Below are positions 12,007 to 19,550 of a stretch of 64,000 nucleotides of DNA, in pieces. Every line of letters begins with the position of its first letter. The stretch's first letter is position 1. The DNA lies in the NCBI GenBank assembly GCA_038060895.1, contig JBBTCT010000005.1, positions 5,713 to 69,712 of the forward strand. The letters run 5' to 3'. The position numbers and the translations under genes are program-made. The notes beneath the pieces were generated by a model. The model searched no databases and was not told where the DNA came from. It was given only the letters and a program-made list of their open reading frames with translations. The stretch comes from Planctomycetota bacterium. Lineage in GTDB: Bacteria; Planctomycetota; MHYJ01; WSZJ01.

Positions 12007-13980
12007 CTAGGGTGCGTCGATCTCCACTCCGCCGTAAAAAACCACGTCCCGCCGGCCTGTCTTCCTGGCCTCGTCCAGCATCTTGCGGATGCTCACCTCC
12101 GGCACTCCCTTCCACTTCGACTTTCCGTTCGACTTCACGACGACTTCCTTCGTCAAATCCACCACGGCAGGATTCCACAGGACCCGGATCTTCGAGATGT
12201 TTTTCGTCTTCAACTCGATCGTCTGGCCCTTGACCTCGACGCTGAAGCGCGCCGGCTCGCTCATCACGGAACGCGATTCCACCGGCTGCTTTTCCTGGTC
12301 GAGAAACTGGACGTTGTCGCACTTCACGCCCGCGTCCAGCCGCGTAACCTCGACCCACGAGAAGCGCGCGGCATCGATGTAGTCGGCGGTCCAGGCGAAT
12401 TTCTTCGGGTAGGGCGTGCGGATCTTGTCGGTCGCCCATTCGAACGACTTGAGGATCTCGTCGTCGGGCGCGCCTTCGTGGCCGCTGTCGGCGAACTCGT
12501 GGTATTCGACGTTGAGTTTCTGGTCCTTCGCGATCTCTGCGAAGGCGCGCGGGGTCTTGATCGGGAATATCGGGTCGAGAGCGCCGTGGATGAAGTAGCT
12601 CGGCGACATCCGCAGGTTGTCGAGGTAGTCCTTCCAGTTCTTTCCGTAAGCCCCATACGGCGATCCCGCCTTCGGCAGGTACGCCGCGTACAGGTCCCCG
12701 TGCCGCATCGCCTGGTGCCACGTCCCGTGCGCGCCCATCGACTGCCCGGCGAGCCAGACCCGGTCGGGGTCGATCGGAAATTTCGCGCGGAGGTACTGAA
12801 GCGCCGCGGGACCCTGCTGTTCGCCGATCTTCATCGGGCCCCACCCGGATTTGCGCGCGCTGGCGGGCTGGGCGACGATGAAGCGCCCGCGGGCCCAGCG
12901 GCGAAGGTACGGCGCGTACTGGCGGCAGTAGTCGATGGTGGCGTTCGTGCCGTGGAGATTCATGAAGACCGGCCAGAGCCGGTCGGGCTTGTAGTCCTCG
13001 GGGACGCTGATGCAGATCTCGCGCTTTTCGCCGTCGGGGAGCTGGTACGTCTCGACGTAATCGCGCGGCGCAATCTCGTGGAATTTGCCGCCCCGCAGGA
13101 GGACCGCGCCGACGAGAGCGGGGGTCACCTCCTCCATTGCCTGCAGCTTCTGCGAGATCGCGTTGCGCTTGTCGGGGTCCTCGACACTCAGGAACTCTTC
13201 GACCAGAGGCTCGACCGCTTCCAGCGTCGCCGCTTCGACCTGGAGCAGGTCCGCCGCATCCATCGTCCCTGCATAACGCGCCAGCCGGCGCCAGAACTCC
13301 GCCCGCGCCTTGACTCCCGCCGACTCGCTTTCCGGCAGCCCTGTCGCCGCGGCATCCAGCGCGTCTGCCGCCTCCCGGAACTTCCCTTCTCCGGCCAGCT
13401 TCGCCGCTTCCGCCGCCTTCTTCCCGGCTTCCTCGCCGGCGCGCTGGTCTTCGATTTCCACGAGTTCGCGACTGGCTTCCTCGGCGATTTCTTCGGGCGC
13501 ACGCACCGCGAAAGACCCGAGGACGGTTCGCGCGGTCGCGGGTTCACGACGCGCGGCCGACACCGCTTCTTCGAGCGCCGCTCGCGCAAGCTTCGTGATT
13601 TCGCCGAGCACCACCGTCAGTTCAGCGATCCTGTCCGGCCTCCTTTCGAGAAGCGAGCGAGCGGCGGAGTCGGCCTCGCGAAAGGATCCGCCATCCAGGA
13701 GTGCACGGGCCGCCGCGACCTTCTCCTCGTACTCCTGTTCCTGCTGCAGACGAAGCTCTTCGGGATCAGCTCGCAGCGGATTGTCAAGACGCCCGGGCGT
13801 CTTCGGGGCCGGCGAGACCACTGGATCGCGGGGGGGAGGGTTGACAACCTGTCCCGCCGATTCGTCTGCTGAAAAGTTTTTCGTCGCCGGCGCGCGGAGA
13901 GACCAGACCAGCGCCAGCGCCGCGGCGGCGATGCCGAGGACGCACACGGCTGAGACGGCGGCGGTGCGGTCGCTGGTCAA
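12007..13980 (-). CDS. Membrane-anchored protein with TPR-like helices and a C-terminal alpha/beta serine hydrolase (esterase/peptidase)
   Basis: N-terminal TM; LHG, nucleophile GQSMG, HGALD, SGHE; TTG start after a purine-rich SD-like sequence. Confidence 0.8.
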   Translation of the reverse strand: MTSDRTAAVSAVCVLGIAAAALALVWSLRAPATKNFSADESAGQVVNPPPRDPVVSPAPKTPGRLDNPLRADPEELRLQQEQEYEEKVAAARALLDGGSFREADSAARSLLERRPDRIAELTVVLGEITKLARAALEEAVSAARREPATARTVLGSFAVRAPEEIAEEASRELVEIEDQRAGEEAGKKAAEAAKLAGEGKFREAADALDAAATGLPESESAGVKARAEFWRRLARYAGTMDAADLLQVEAATLEAVEPLVEEFLSVEDPDKRNAISQKLQAMEEVTPALVGAVLLRGGKFHEIAPRDYVETYQLPDGEKREICISVPEDYKPDRLWPVFMNLHGTNATIDYCRQYAPYLRRWARGRFIVAQPASARKSGWGPMKIGEQQGPAALQYLRAKFPIDPDRVWLAGQSMGAHGTWHQAMRHGDLYAAYLPKAGSPYGAYGKNWKDYLDNLRMSPSYFIHGALDPIFPIKTPRAFAEIAKDQKLNVEYHEFADSGHEGAPDDEILKSFEWATDKIRTPYPKKFAWTADYIDAARFSWVEVTRLDAGVKCDNVQFLDQEKQPVESRSVMSEPARFSVEVKGQTIELKTKNISKIRVLWNPAVVDLTKEVVVKSNGKSKWKGVPEVSIRKMLDEARKTGRRDVVFYGGVEIDAP

Positions 13981-14196
13981 GGTTCCTGCCTGGAAAGCCC
14001 TCTGGCGATCATATCAACTCCCGGATTTCACGGCTCGTGCGCCCCTCCAATCCTTTCCATTTGAGTCAACAATGAAGCGCGATTCCGCTTCCTTTCACCC
14101 CGGTGAGCTGCCCTACAATCTCCCCCCACGGAATGCGGGAATTTCCGATTCTCTTCCCGCGTATTCCTGACAACCCCATTCACGGAGACTCGACGC

Positions 14197-15054
14197 ATGC
14201 GGACATTGAGCTTGATCGCCGCCGCGTTCGCGCTCACCGCGCTTCCCGCCCTGGCGAAAGGCCCCGAGTGCAAGTGGGCCAGGACCTGGGAAGACGCGCT
14301 GGCGGAGGCGAAGGCACGGAACGTTCCGATTCACGTGACGTTTCACAAGGACAACTGAGGGGGCTGCACGAGCATGGACAGTTCTGTCTATGCGAATAAG
14401 GATTTCGTGGCGGCCTCGAAGCGGTGGGTGAACGTTTACTGCAGCAAGGATTCGATGCACGGCACGGAAAAGGTCGGCGACCAGGAGATGTGCAAGCTCC
14501 ATCCCGGGATCAAGTGCGAGGACCACATCGCCTGCAACCAGAGCGCGGGCGGGCTGTACTTCAAGGGATCCTTCGGCGCGCCGGCGACGGTCTGGTGCAT
14601 GCCGGACGGCAAGGAGATCGGCAAGCACCAGGGCGGCATGGCTTCGAAGCAGGTGATCGAGAAGATGGCCGAAGCAGAGAAGGCCTGCGGCCCGGGGCTG
14701 GACCAGGATGCGTATGACTTCCTGCTCGGGAAGACCGAAGCGGGCGACAAGGCGGCGAACGACGGAAAGCAGAAGGAAGCGGTCGAGGCGTATACGGCCA
14801 TCGTGAAGACCATGGGGAAGAATCCGGCTGCGAAGAGCTGGGTTGAGAAGGCGCAGGCGGGTCTGGACCGGCAGGTCGAGCTCGCGAAGGGACAGATCGA
14901 AGAAGCGGTGAAGTTGAAGGACAGCGGCGACTTCGCGAAGGCGAAGGAGATGCTGAAGGCGGTTCAGGTGAGTTTCAAAGGCCAGCCGGTCGCGAAGGAA
15001 GCGGACAAGGCGATGGCCGACGTCACGGCGGCGGAGAAGGCCGCGAAGAAGTAG
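14197..15054 (+). CDS. Probable selenoprotein: secreted thioredoxin-fold protein with a U-x-x-C motif and a C-terminal helical domain (285 aa with TGA read-through)
   Basis: GGAG SD and ATG at 14197, then signal peptide MRTLSLIAAAFALTALPALA and Trx-like WARTWEDALAEAKARNVPIHVTFHKDN-[TGA 14356-58]-GGCTSMDSSVY. This is in frame with ORF 14374-15054, and a SECIS-like hairpin follows. Confidence 0.8.
14372..14393 (+). promoter_or_regulatory. Candidate bacterial SECIS element
   Basis: GCATGGACA-GTTC-TGTCTATGC: 9-bp stem with one G.U pair. The apical loop starts with GU, 22 nt after the TGA. Confidence 0.65.
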
Positions 15055-15073
15055 CAAATCCGAAGTCAAGCTG

Positions 15074-15105
15074 AACGCCCCGCCTCACGGCGGGGCGTTT
15101 TTTTT
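15074..15105 (+). terminator. Rho-independent terminator
   Basis: AACGCCCCGCC-TCAC-GGCGGGGCGTT followed by a T run, downstream of the 14197-15054 gene. Confidence 0.9.
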
Positions 15106-15113
15106 GCAACGCA

Positions 15114-17099
15114 TCAGGGAATCGCGATTTCCAGCACGCCCCACACCACCCGGTCGCGCCTCCCGGTCCTCCGCACCTCTTCGATCATGAACCGCGCACC
15201 GCGATCTTCCGGCAACCCCTTCCACGCTTCTTTGCCATTCAGCACCACGGTCATGGCGGGCTGAACGTCCTTTGGCACGCCGTCCCAGTAGATGCGAAGG
15301 CTGGCGACGCGTTCGGTTCGAATTTCGATTCTCGTCCCGAGATCTTCGGCATCCACGTGGGCGCAGTCCTTTGAAATCCGCCGCCGCTCGACGGTCGTGC
15401 CGTAGTCATCGACAAAGTTCACGGTCAGCTCGCCGGCCTCCTTCGCGATCCCGGCGATTTCGATCCAGGAGCATCGCGCATTCGCCAGGTTGTCCGTCGT
15501 CCACGCGATCTTCTTCGGGTGAGGCGCGCGCTTCTGCTGAAGCGCCCACACGAGCGACAGGCGCTGGTCTTCCATGGAGGCGCCCTCGTGGGAACGCTCG
15601 GCGTATTCGATGACCTCGACGCGGCAGCTCTTGTCTTTCGCGATGTCCGCGAATCGACGCGCGTACGCGACCGGGAAGACGTCGTCTTTCGCGCCGACAA
15701 GTGCCCGGGCGGGGGCGTTGCGGAGGTTGGAGATCCAGTCGAGCCAGTGATTGCCGTACATCGGGGAGTACGGCGTTCCCGCGATCCCGACGAGCGCCGA
15801 GTAGCGGTCGCCGTAGCGCATCGCCTGGAACCAGACGCCGTGCGCGCCTGCCGAGATGCCGGCGAGGATCACGCGATCCGGATCGTAAAGGTGCCGCTTG
15901 CGCAAGTCCGCGAGGATCGCCGGCACATGGTCCTCGCCGCGTCGATTCGGGCCCCAGCCGGCGGCCTCGTCGGGAATCGCGACGGCGACGATCGGCTCGT
16001 CGCCGAGCGCCTGCCTCCAGCCGCGTGCGACGCCCCGGGCGAATTCGGGGGCGCTCACGCCGGGCTGAAGCAGCAGCACGAGCGGCCGCGAGCGCGTCGG
16101 CAGGCCGCCGTCCGGGACGGAAACGGCGTAGCGGCGCTTTCCCGCCCCCGCGACCTCGTGCTCGTACACGCGCTCGCCGGACGGCGCGTCCACGGGTGTT
16201 CCGCCGCGCAGGATCACAGCCGCGACCAGTTCCGCGTCGGCCTCCGGCGTGGACGCCAGCTTCAGCATCGCCTCTTCGAATGCCTTCGCGTCCGGCGCCG
16301 CAATGGCCGCTTCCACCGCGCGCTCGACGGCGTCGAGTTTTGTCAGCCCGATCGACGCAAGCCGCTCCGGCCGCACGACGCCGTCGTAGCGCGCGCGCTG
16401 CACGAGCCGCGCCGCGCGCACGAGCGCCCGGTCGCGGGCATCGCCCGCAAGGCCGCGGGCGGCTTCGAGAAGCGCGATTACGGCGTCCTCAAGCTTCCCT
16501 TCCTTCTCGAACACGTCGGCATCCGTCAGCCGCTTCATCGACATCTCGCGCGCCACCGTCAATTTCAGCTGGTCGCGAATCGCACCGAGCTTCGCCGCGG
16601 ACCCCGGGGGCACGCGCCCCGCGAGTTCGTCGAGCGCGTCCACTCCCTTGACCGGATCCTTCCGCGCCCGCGACTCCGCTTCCTGACACGCCGCTTCCAC
16701 CAGAGCTTCGATTTCCGTGCGAACGGGATCTATTTCGGAAGCGCGTCCCGGGAACCGGGCGGCGAGGAGGTTGAGGCCGTCGAGGGCGGCGGCGAACTCG
16801 CCCTGGTCCGCCAGTGTTTCTGCGGCCTTGCGGTCGTCCCTGAAAGCGTCGCCGGGCGTGCGCGCGGCAACCGGCAGCCTTGCGGGCACGGAACTGGCCT
16901 CGTCGCCGTTCCCGTAGTGGATCGGGGGCCGGTCGTGGATGACGATGTCTTTCGCCTTCTCGCGCGCCGCCTGGTTTTCCTGCTCGACGTGCCAGGCATA
17001 GGCGAGAGCGGCGCCGAGAACGACGATGCCGACGCCGACCGAGAGCCAGGCGGCAGAAGGGCCGGAGCGGGGGCGCGGCGGCGAAGCGGGAAAAGGCAC
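15114..17099 (-). CDS. Paralogue of 12007-13980: TM anchor, helical repeats and alpha/beta serine hydrolase
   Basis: GISAGAHG (versus GQSMGAHG), QAMRYGD, GAKDD, SHEG; shared KKIAWT...SWIE and RRTGRRD..G.EI C-terminus. Confidence 0.8.
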   Translation of the reverse strand: MPFPASPPRPRSGPSAAWLSVGVGIVVLGAALAYAWHVEQENQAAREKAKDIVIHDRPPIHYGNGDEASSVPARLPVAARTPGDAFRDDRKAAETLADQGEFAAALDGLNLLAARFPGRASEIDPVRTEIEALVEAACQEAESRARKDPVKGVDALDELAGRVPPGSAAKLGAIRDQLKLTVAREMSMKRLTDADVFEKEGKLEDAVIALLEAARGLAGDARDRALVRAARLVQRARYDGVVRPERLASIGLTKLDAVERAVEAAIAAPDAKAFEEAMLKLASTPEADAELVAAVILRGGTPVDAPSGERVYEHEVAGAGKRRYAVSVPDGGLPTRSRPLVLLLQPGVSAPEFARGVARGWRQALGDEPIVAVAIPDEAAGWGPNRRGEDHVPAILADLRKRHLYDPDRVILAGISAGAHGVWFQAMRYGDRYSALVGIAGTPYSPMYGNHWLDWISNLRNAPARALVGAKDDVFPVAYARRFADIAKDKSCRVEVIEYAERSHEGASMEDQRLSLVWALQQKRAPHPKKIAWTTDNLANARCSWIEIAGIAKEAGELTVNFVDDYGTTVERRRISKDCAHVDAEDLGTRIEIRTERVASLRIYWDGVPKDVQPAMTVVLNGKEAWKGLPEDRGARFMIEEVRRTGRRDRVVWGVLEIAIP

Positions 17100-17119: not shown

Positions 17120-18160
17120 TCAGGCGCCCGCAGCGTCGAACGCGTGGATAGCGTGTGCCTTCACCAGCATCCAGGCGCGCTTCCCTGCGACGAGTTCCAG
17201 CTTTTCGACGGCGCGCGCGGTCACCTTGGCGACCCAGCGCTCTTCGCCGGCCACGAGGCGGACGTACATGTGCTCGCCGAGCGTCTCGATGGCCGCGACC
17301 TCGGCGGGAATCACGTTCTGCGCGGAGACGAGGCCAGGCTCCGACGACATGAGCATGATGTCCTCGGCTCGCACCGCCACTCGCGAGGGCTCCGGAAAGC
17401 CGGCGACCGCCGCCATCTCGAGCTGGCTCCCCTTCGCGGTCCCCAGCGAGAGGACCCCACCCGCTCGCGCGAGGACTTTCACTTCGAAGAGGTTCTCCGC
17501 GCCGAGAGCCTCGAGAACACCGAGCGCCGCGGGGCTCGCGAGGATGTCGCGGGGGTGACCCTGGGCGGCGACGCGGCCACGGTCGAGGACGATGACGTGG
17601 GAAGCGAGGGCGTGGACCTCGTGAGGGTCGTGGGTGACGACGAGCATGGGTATGCCCAACTCGGCAGGAATCCTCGCGAGGTACGGGAGGATTCGGGCGC
17701 GCATCGGGCGATCCACGGCGGCGAGAGGTTCGTCGAGGAGCAGCAGCCGCGGTCCGGCCGCAAGCGCGCGCGCGACGGCAACGCGCTGACGTTCGCCGCC
17801 GGAGAGTTCGGTGGCGCGGCGGTCGAGAAGGGGCCGAAGCTCCAGCGCGTCAATGGCTGCCTCTGAGGCATTCGACCGCCCGGCGAACTCGATGTTTCCG
17901 CGGGTCGTGAGGTGCGGAAAAAGCGACGCATCCTGCGGAACCCAGCCGATTTCGCGGTCATGGACTTCCATCTCGTCCAGCCGGATTCCCCCGGCCTCAA
18001 ATCGCCCATTTACCTCGGGGCGCAATCCCGCAAGCGCTTCCAGAATCGTCGTCTTCCCGGATCCGCTCGCCCCGAACAGTGCGGTCGCCGGAGATGCCCA
18101 GGACGCTGCGGCCTCGAGCCGGAAGCCCGGGTACTCCGCGCGCAGGTCGAAGGTGATCAT
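17120..18160 (-). CDS. modC: Molybdate ABC transporter ATP-binding protein with C-terminal TOBE domain
   Basis: GASGSGKTT, QDASLFPHL, LSGGERQRVA, LLLDEP, TOBE-like SAQN..AEV...LVKA. Confidence 0.9.
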   Translation of the reverse strand: MITFDLRAEYPGFRLEAAASWASPATALFGASGSGKTTILEALAGLRPEVNGRFEAGGIRLDEMEVHDREIGWVPQDASLFPHLTTRGNIEFAGRSNASEAAIDALELRPLLDRRATELSGGERQRVAVARALAAGPRLLLLDEPLAAVDRPMRARILPYLARIPAELGIPMLVVTHDPHEVHALASHVIVLDRGRVAAQGHPRDILASPAALGVLEALGAENLFEVKVLARAGGVLSLGTAKGSQLEMAAVAGFPEPSRVAVRAEDIMLMSSEPGLVSAQNVIPAEVAAIETLGEHMYVRLVAGEERWVAKVTARAVEKLELVAGKRAWMLVKAHAIHAFDAAGA

Positions 18161-18828
18161 CGTTCGCCTCTTCGCAGGAAGATCTCGGCTGCCGCGGTCG
18201 GGGCGAGCGCGAGGAGAAGCGAGACGCCTGCGAGCATCCAGGCTTCTCCTTCGCGGAACATTTCGATGCGCCCGTAGATGGCGAGCGCGAGCGTTTCGGT
18301 TTCGCCCGGGATCCGCCCGGCGACCATCGAGGTTGCGCCGAATTCGCCGAGGGCGCGGGCAAAGCCGAAGAGCGTTCCGTAGAGGAGGCCGCGGGCGGCG
18401 AGCGGGAGGGAGATGCGGCGGAACACTCCGGGGCCGGAGCACCCCAGCGTCCGCGCCACATGTTCGAGGCGGAGGGGGACCGCGGCGAACGCCTGCTCCG
18501 CGGCGCGCGTGATGAGAGGAAATGCCACGACGGCGGAAGCGAGCGCGGCGGCCCACCAGGTGAGGAGCAGCGTCTGCCCGAAGAGCGCTTCGCACGCGCG
18601 CCCGAACGGCGAACGGCGCGACAGGCACTCGAGGAGCGCGAGCCCGATCGCGACCGGTGGAAGGACCATTGGAAGCGCGACGACCGTCTGGACGAGGGGT
18701 TTGCCGGGGAAACGGAATCGGGCGAGTGCGTAACCGAGCGCCAGCGCCGGCACCCCGGCGATGAGCGTCGCCGTGAGCGCGACGCGCAGGGTGAGAAGGG
18801 CGATGCCGGCGGTTTCGGGAAGGGTCAT
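18157..18828 (-). CDS. modB: Molybdate ABC transporter permease
   Basis: LPMVLPPVAIG, ARTLG, FARALGEFGAT...G.IPGETETL. Confidence 0.93.
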   Translation of the reverse strand: MTLPETAGIALLTLRVALTATLIAGVPALALGYALARFRFPGKPLVQTVVALPMVLPPVAIGLALLECLSRRSPFGRACEALFGQTLLLTWWAAALASAVVAFPLITRAAEQAFAAVPLRLEHVARTLGCSGPGVFRRISLPLAARGLLYGTLFGFARALGEFGATSMVAGRIPGETETLALAIYGRIEMFREGEAWMLAGVSLLLALAPTAAAEIFLRRGER

Positions 18829-19550
18829 TTCGGGGGGATCCCGAACCCGCGCTTCCGGGCGTCTTCCTGGAACCCGGCTGAGCCGAGCCACCCGACGAAG
18901 GTGCGCGCTTCCGCGGAGTCACGCCCTGCGACGACCGCGGCGACGTACTCCGTGACGGGACCGTCGGGCGGCGTCCAGGCCGCGTGCGCGCGCTTCGCGG
19001 CCTTTGCGTCCGTCGCGTACACGAGCGTGTAGTCGACGGCGCCCGACTCGAACAGCGCGAGAGCTGCTCTGACGGAATCGGCGATCACGAACCGGGCCTC
19101 GAGTCCCGCCAGCCGGCCCGAGCCTTCCAGGTATTTGCGCCACGCCTTTCCGGCAGGAACTTCCGGCCCCGCGATGGCGACCTTCGTTGTCGCAGGGATG
19201 CCGTCGAGCGCCAGGGTGCCTTGCGGCCCGAGGAGCGCCAGCCGGTTCGTCAGGAAGACGCGACGCGTGGTCTCCACGACCCGACTCCCGAGGCGGTCGA
19301 GGCTCTCCGCGTCCGCGCAGAGGACCACGTCGTACTCGGCGCCCGCCTCGACCTGGCGCGACAACGTCGACGACGCTTCGAAGGTCATGTTGACCGACAC
19401 CGGAATGTTTCGCGCATCGAACCCGGTGGCGGAGGGCATGAGCGCCTCGCGAAGCGAGCTGGCCGCGCCGACGCGGACGGCGCGCGGAAGCGGCCGCGAG
19501 CACGCCGCCAGGGCGACGAGGAGCACGACCGGCCGGAGGCGGGGATTCAT
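18825..19550 (-). CDS. modA: Molybdate ABC transporter substrate-binding lipoprotein
   Basis: Lipobox LAAC, AASSL, ASSTLSRQVEAGA, VPAG, VYATDA. Confidence 0.9.
   Translation of the reverse strand: MNPRLRPVVLLVALAACSRPLPRAVRVGAASSLREALMPSATGFDARNIPVSVNMTFEASSTLSRQVEAGAEYDVVLCADAESLDRLGSRVVETTRRVFLTNRLALLGPQGTLALDGIPATTKVAIAGPEVPAGKAWRKYLEGSGRLAGLEARFVIADSVRAALALFESGAVDYTLVYATDAKAAKRAHAAWTPPDGPVTEYVAAVVAGRDSAEARTFVGWLGSAGFQEDARKRGFGIPPK

Follow-up and report, generated by a model that had tools for sequence, protein, structure and literature searches.

The DNA analysed here is a window of 64,000 nucleotides from the Planctomycetota assembly GCA_038060895.1 (contig JBBTCT010000005.1, positions 5,713 to 69,712 of the forward strand), and this report concerns a gene at positions 14197-15054 on its plus strand. 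The gene opens with an ATG at 14197, lying 9 nt downstream of a Shine-Dalgarno-like GGAG (14184-14187, read in the sequence), and runs through 285 codons to a TAG at 15052-15054, with an in-frame TGA at codon 54 (14356-14358). Under the standard code the locus falls into two open reading frames (ORFs), 14197-14358 (53 amino acids) and 14374-15054 (226 amino acids). An initial annotation of this DNA, made from the letters alone, had proposed a hidden secreted selenoprotein; its ribosome-binding site, start codon and in-frame TGA all lie where it had placed them, but the 226 residues that it counted beyond the TGA are the length of the second ORF, and the full frame has 231 residues after codon 54. 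The protein context at this codon is HVTFHKDN-U-GGC-TSMDSS, likewise TFHKDN-U-GGCTSMDSSVYANK, in which the TGA stands where the first cysteine of a thioredoxin (Trx) CxxC motif belongs. With a probability of roughly 0.85, we consider that one gene occupies the locus and that its product is an exported (periplasmic) thioredoxin-fold thiol-disulfide oxidoreductase, 285 residues long, with the UGA read as selenocysteine (Sec). Codon 54 itself almost certainly encodes Sec, judging from the comparisons described below.

The TGA is a genuine feature of the DNA. Two contigs from a different study, X3 (covering 14100-14883) and X4 (14290-14877), include the codon and have no differences from the window, and the same holds for X10, a 229-nt contig of a metatranscriptome library that corresponds to 14221-14449 and spans both the TGA and the hairpin behind it. 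X8 and the small-share runs leave the TGA uncovered. Runs that contain the gene include ones labelled groundwater or aquifer. Selection acts on both sides of the codon. In five within-genus pairs the ratio of nonsynonymous to synonymous substitution rates (dN/dS) was 0.11-0.20 over codons 22-53, which precede the TGA, and 0.20-0.37 in the part downstream, which argues that the N-terminal piece is translated in the same frame and is at least as constrained as the remainder. The gene is therefore one continuous frame in which purifying selection extends past the UGA.

These observations bear on the alternative that the TGA is a true stop. The locus would then be a pseudogene in decay, or else a pair of genes, the first for a secreted peptide of 53 residues and the second, from ATG 14374, for a protein of 226 residues. 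Public gene calls agree with such a split, as the initial annotation had foreseen: 12 of 19 database homologues, all from Planctomycetes/Planctomycetota metagenome-assembled genomes, are fragments of 223-233 amino acids and only seven are full length, while 29 of the 150 best representatives begin at profile position 65, a methionine just past the TGA. A GAGGGGG located 9-15 nt ahead of ATG 14374 could also serve as a ribosome-binding site. This G-rich stretch is, however, unconserved, since relatives have TGA-CCC/CCG-GGC at this place, and a stop would sever the thioredoxin fold inside its active site. The constraint on codons 22-53, the occurrence of TGA at precisely this position in 59 copies throughout the phylum, the contiguous cysteine forms that align at the same place, and a hairpin that tracks the TGA likewise speak against termination, and we regard it as very improbable.

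The state of codon 54 was followed in two sets of homologues. For the first set 61 related genomes were searched, of which 35 matched; 30 loci were fetched, yielding 34 copies that cover the codon. Most full-length matches in these genomes contain exactly one TGA. At codon 54 it is TGA in 26 of the 34 copies (H-K-D-x-U-x-x-C), C-x-x-C in five, a cysteine without its partner cysteine in one and asparagine or serine in two. A phylum-wide search with a family profile (E<=1e-20) matched 76 of 301 genomes, or 49 of the 190 high-quality ones, and from it a held-out set of 60 loci was picked by stop label ('1 TGA', 33; 'none', 27), giving 62 copies. Here TGA occupies the same column in 33 copies, while three have C-x-x-C, one has cysteine only and 25 have neither redox residue, typically reading Q-D-G-E-E-A-N-E. 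Two of the loci labelled '1 TGA' proved to be cysteine forms whose TGA is merely the terminator. Most of the distant copies belong to a second Sec subfamily, whose motif is H-G-F-Y-U-G-P-C-W-G-M-H. Among the seven full-length database homologues the Sec position is filled by cysteine in four (C-P-K/R-C), by serine in two and by valine in one. Redox-active forms thus have either TGA or cysteine at this codon in both sets and in the database, as the selenoprotein proposal had anticipated. In a maximum-likelihood tree of 32 members, with its root left open, Sec appears in both major clades and the Cys, Ser and Val forms are nested, requiring 4-6 changes of state.

Tandem arrays are frequent in the family. 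Locus L093 (G245:C4:214028-216388) has a Cys copy (CGPC) adjoining a Sec copy (UGPC), and other arrays lie at G040:C201, G046:C191, G055:C133, G028:C49 and G006:C162. The genome under study has a stop-free paralogue of its own (G000:C21:27338-28165), which is redox-dead, having Glu at the Sec position and Leu at that of Cys. Redox-less, stop-free paralogues elsewhere are found at L078-L092, L095 and L111-L117; all 25 such copies retain the conserved proline of the fold.

Bacterial Sec insertion sequence (SECIS) elements, following the description of bSECISearch, are stem-loops that follow the UGA closely and have a G in their apical loop. The gene has a SECIS-like hairpin at 14372-14393, with a 9-bp stem (GCATGGACA / loop GTTC / TGTCTATGC); it is the hairpin with a GU-starting loop that the initial annotation had described, and the 22 nt given there are the distance from the UGA to the first nucleotide of the GUUC loop. 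For comparison across the family a geometric criterion was used, namely a stem of 7 bp or more without interruption and a loop of 3-6 nt that starts 14-28 nt after the codon, and the chance expectation was taken from synonymous shuffles, which leave each protein sequence unchanged. In the first set such a stem is present in 23 of the 26 TGA copies and in none of the eight non-TGA copies, where the longest stem has 4 bp (shuffle expectation 15%). In the held-out set the figures are 14 of 33 for TGA copies (26 of 33 when a 6-bp stem suffices) and 2 of 29 for the others (shuffle expectation 13%). The hairpins of TGA copies fall 18-26 nt downstream of the TGA, and nearly all loops have a G within the first two positions at a roughly constant distance from the UGA. 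The stems themselves are diverse: at least eight distinct sequences occur in the first set, the held-out set has 10, and the register also varies between subgroups. TGA forms thus retain the hairpin, built from a wide variety of stems, and non-TGA forms lack it; this contrast is the main argument for a putative SECIS-like role of the hairpin. In the minimum-energy fold of 14360-14417 the hairpin is lengthened by a lower helix in which GGGGGCUGCACGA pairs with UCGUGGCGGCCUC (-29.9 kcal/mol, z -4.05). The same lower helix is predicted in the closest relatives, and may either belong to the SECIS or simply reflect how closely these sequences are related.

The genome has the complete Sec machinery, and all four of the components sought are present in this assembly of 5.4 Mb (86.5% complete, 66% GC). 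The tRNA for Sec (tRNA-Sec) scores 71.7 bits against a cut-off of 47 and has the anticodon TCA (UCA), and selA (541 bits), selB (310.7 bits, or 344 including a C-terminal piece) and selD (364 bits) all score above their curated cut-offs. The selD gene itself contains one in-frame TGA at the usual position (SCAG-U-ASK), followed by a hairpin whose stem has 6-7 bp and whose GGC loop lies 17 nt past the UGA, a geometry like that of the gene described here.

A crude genome-wide scan for U-x-x-C returned 120 candidates, mostly wrong-frame Arg-rich ORFs, of which about 12 look real by eye. At least 10 further Trx-like candidates are among them (positions 0-based on the strand indicated, on contigs of the source genome, G000): C1:199133(+), C1:335065(-), C1:513452(-), C2:202127(-), C5:109562(+), C12:23543(-), C22:369081(+), C35:20578(+), C35:77074(-) and C42:31181(+). 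In this crude scan about a dozen other Trx-like candidates have a matching hairpin geometry, and several share a near-identical hairpin (TGGATGCG/CGTATCCA) with a 4-nt loop that begins with G and lies 24 nt past the UGA. The organism looks rich in selenoproteins by these candidates.

Reading of the UGA as Trp, Cys or Gly, through a changed code or near-cognate suppression, would likewise keep the frame open and conserved. Yet TGA ends more long ORFs in this genome than any other stop (1871 of 3644 with at least 300 codons, in a crude count that includes some spurious ORFs), and is thus no reassigned sense codon; several members of the family also end in TGA. In the redox-active forms the position aligns with no residue other than cysteine, a dedicated Sec machinery is complete, and suppression needs no structure at a fixed distance, yet a hairpin accompanies the UGA. 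Insertion of a standard amino acid at codon 54 is therefore scarcely credible.

Read through the UGA, the predicted protein begins with a Sec-type signal peptide (M1-A20, 14197-14256), recognised by eye, in which A-L-A precedes K21; the ORFs of the first set have a similar signal-type N-terminus wherever the start could be placed. The thioredoxin-fold domain of the Thioredoxin_7 type follows at about residues 25-165 (14269-14691) and contains U54-G-G-C57 and the invariant P129. The Pfam model PF13899 (Thioredoxin_7) matches residues 27-80 with 30.7 bits (cut-off 27) and all 32 of the 32 family members at E<=0.01, and PF13098 is scored by 27 of the 32. In comparisons of the family profile with the PDB the closest structure is TXNDC12/ERp18 (E 1.3e-9), followed by AGR2 and the C-terminal domain of DsbD, and the ERp18 motif H-K-S-W-C-G-A-C aligns with H-K-D-x-U-x-x-C of the family. 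C57 and P129 are invariant in alignment A2, while H88, C99, C107 and H110 are nearly so. P129 is presumed from its position to be the cis-proline of the fold. The C-terminal part, about residues 170-285 (14704-15051), had been noted earlier as a Lys/Ala-rich helical domain. The helical part appears to be a repeat domain resembling tetratricopeptide repeats (TPR), since the family profile matches BamD/YfiO (3qky, a TPR-like lipoprotein) over residues 195-273 with E 5e-6; the Pfam TPR models match only one or two of the 32 members at E<=0.01.

An insertion in the thioredoxin fold (14458-14535) contains the conserved H88, C99, C107 and H110, plus C113, and is a candidate metal site or disulfide. 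The initial annotation had suggested just this; its cysteine-containing segment was located at residues 99-113 (CKLHPGIKCEDHIAC) and the cluster is conserved. In the held-out set the His-Cys-Cys-His cluster is present in all 10 HKD-type Sec copies, in 22 of the 25 redox-less copies and in none of the 26 HGFY-type copies. Because redox-less copies keep it, the cluster may have a role independent of the active site, either as a metal site or as a His-flanked disulfide, and because these paralogues keep the proline as well, the family seems to have a redox-independent branch that resembles the AGR-type proteins found among the relatives of ERp18.

Four ligand-type residues such as His-Cys-Cys-His are typical of metal sites. 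Together with the near invariance of these residues and their survival in redox-less paralogues, this could point to a different function for an exported selenoprotein, in which its U-x-x-C pair and the cluster would handle metals or metalloids (e.g., Cu, Zn, Hg), or reduce peroxides or sulfenic acids, instead of exchanging disulfides. Several of the Sec families catalogued in a review table are metal-related. On the other hand, the HGFYUGPCWGMH Sec subfamily does without the cluster and still has U-x-x-C, and the nearest solved relatives (ERp18, AGR2 and DsbD-gamma) are disulfide oxidoreductases or relatives of these. C99 and C107 could form a plain structural disulfide in an oxidising compartment, and the flanking genes, with weak alpha/beta-hydrolase matches, offer no metal context. 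We consider such a function unlikely.

For the preferred oxidoreductase, the following sequence of events can be proposed. SelB and tRNA-Sec would decode the UGA at codon 54 as Sec, directed by the hairpin that begins 13 nt after the codon, and the resulting active site would be U-G-G-C, with Sec taking the place of the attacking N-terminal Cys of CxxC. After removal of the signal peptide, the thioredoxin domain would engage substrate proteins in an exchange of selenenylsulfide and disulfide bonds. The TPR-like tail is probably the part that binds a partner or substrate, and the His-Cys-Cys-His insertion would have a separate structural or metal-binding role. The enzyme may work in the reducing or isomerising direction, with electrons from the DsbD/CcdA-type membrane protein of the genome (DsbD_TM, 113 bits; G000 C14:123686-124321).

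Several points weigh against this reading or limit it. Incorporation of Sec, and the existence of the protein, are deduced from sequence, and the same applies to the oxidoreductase chemistry, the substrate and the roles assigned to tail and insertion. The X10 contig places the gene in an RNA library, which falls short of proving transcription. Export is suggested by an N-terminus read by eye, and the proposed direction of electron flow has as its sole basis the presence of DsbD together with a search that found no DsbB or VKOR in an assembly of 86.5% completeness. Judged on this gene by itself, a stem of 9 bp is marginal, as 5.6% of 500 synonymous shuffles reach it, so that support for the hairpin comes from the family, where it tracks the TGA. 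The homologue copies are themselves related by descent, and their counts overstate independence. The folding energy of the whole segment after the TGA is unremarkable in this gene (z -0.89); it averages z -0.80 in 25 TGA copies versus +0.22 in seven others, with p<=0.05 in only three of the 25. Folding energy is a poor discriminator in this GC-rich DNA, and the geometric hairpin criterion was used instead. A search of 14250-14500 against Rfam returned only a chance match to a long non-coding RNA (E 0.32). Finally, a basic residue as compensation in the Cys forms (CPKC, CPRC, CPHC) was considered and discarded, as it occurs in one subfamily only, with UGRC and CGPC found elsewhere.

Beyond the coding frame, an intrinsic terminator follows at 15073-15106, with a 12-bp GC-rich stem (15073-15100) and then a T-run, so that the clean terminator claimed previously was recovered. 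The TACAAT that had been proposed as a promoter box is present at 14114-14119 and may be a -10 element, but a consensus scan of 13800-15300 gave no sigma-70-like site with two hexamers. The gene is a solitary one, flanked by minus-strand genes at 12007-13980 and 15114-17099. Their products, each of about 660 amino acids, are mutual paralogues (35-39% identity) with weak alpha/beta-hydrolase matches only (Peptidase_S9, 24.6 bits), and that of 12007-13980 has an N-terminal hydrophobic anchor. Both genes flank the orthologue in five same-genus loci. Further along, 17120-18922 (minus strand) encodes an ATP-binding cassette (ABC) transporter ATPase with a C-terminal TOBE domain (ABC_tran 97 bits, TOBE 41.5 bits) and no evident link to selenoproteins.

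Comparison with known systems places the protein, as it appears from sequence, in a new, large planctomycete family within the well-known class of Trx-fold UxxC selenoproteins, with conventional decoding. No model of NCBIfam release 20.0 reaches its cut-off for the protein, for a Cys orthologue or for six more members drawn from the two Sec subfamilies. Other Trx-type selenoprotein models give the highest scores, 19-27 bits, where their cut-offs would require 190-805. Among these, NF041199 (Trx7/PDZ (seleno)protein) gives 18.8 bits against 300, NF041382 (VPGUxxT thioredoxin-like (seleno)protein) gives 22.5 bits against 350 for the Cys homologue P0004 only, and TsoB (NF045694) gives 22-27 bits against 805, confined to the Trx core. 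The family tables of two reviews (PMC13188914, 2026; PMC9312934, 2022) contain a single PF13899 family, the GOS 'PDZ/Trx7' protein (motif CxxU), and a family that matches was not found in these tables. The families of Haft and Tolstoy (2025) and of Xiao and Zhang (2025; deep-Sep) were compared as rows of the review table, and a planctomycete genome paper (PMC4807772) has its selenoprotein candidates in supplementary table S9, which might list a relative. The earlier suggestion of an undescribed family accordingly holds as far as NCBIfam release 20.0 and the two review tables extend, although the class to which it belongs is very well known.

The catalogued Trx-fold UxxC selenoprotein family resembles the one described here in having Sec as the first residue of CxxC, a SECIS hairpin in the coding region just after the UGA and Cys homologues. 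By description it is set apart, as the best Pfam match here is Thioredoxin_7 rather than Thioredoxin_2, with a His-Cys-Cys-His insertion and a TPR-like tail in addition. NF041199 also combines a Thioredoxin_7-type domain with Sec, but has CxxU and a PDZ domain, whereas the present protein has UxxC and no Pfam PDZ match. TXNDC12/ERp18 and AGR2 (PDB 2k8v, 1sen and 2lns) share the location in a secretory compartment and the coexistence of active and redox-degenerate members, and their H-K-x-x-C-x-x-C motif aligns with H-K-D-x-U-x-x-C, but they are eukaryotic, single-domain proteins with Cys only and without the His/Cys insertion or a TPR tail. DsbD gamma and the DsbH-type periplasmic reductases have the Thioredoxin_7/DsbH-type fold, and a DsbD_TM protein is encoded in the genome; the matches to them are weak (E 5e-4; 19-22 bits), and the protein described here is predicted to be soluble, stand-alone and Sec-containing. 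Neighbours of the homologue P0018 in the ESM Atlas are Planctomycetota Trx7/TPR clusters, with similar ones in Verrucomicrobiota and Acidobacteriota.

A broader history may be drawn from the distribution of the Sec, Cys and redox-less forms, in which an uncatalogued, exported Trx7-TPR family spans the planctomycete phylum, Sec is the ancestral active-site residue and has repeatedly given way to Cys or disappeared along with the partner Cys, and the His-Cys-Cys-His site, kept in redox-dead paralogues, is a metal centre. We think it improbable that this account holds in full; if it did, the family would couple selenium redox chemistry to periplasmic metal handling, beyond the role of a disulfide isomerase.

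The principles of Sec decoding are unchanged by the family. Its practical weight lies in annotation, as public pipelines cut its members at the UGA and no NCBIfam model rescues the full protein. With a Sec-flagged family model, hundreds of Planctomycetota gene calls would be put right, since 143 representative clusters fall at E<=1e-30 and 76 of the 301 genomes sampled have a match. For the biology of the phylum, the family adds to the view of Planctomycetota as heavy users of exported Sec-containing proteins of the thioredoxin fold, and its natural series of Sec, Cys and redox-dead paralogues, which sometimes lie next to each other, lets the question be asked of what advantage Sec has over Cys.

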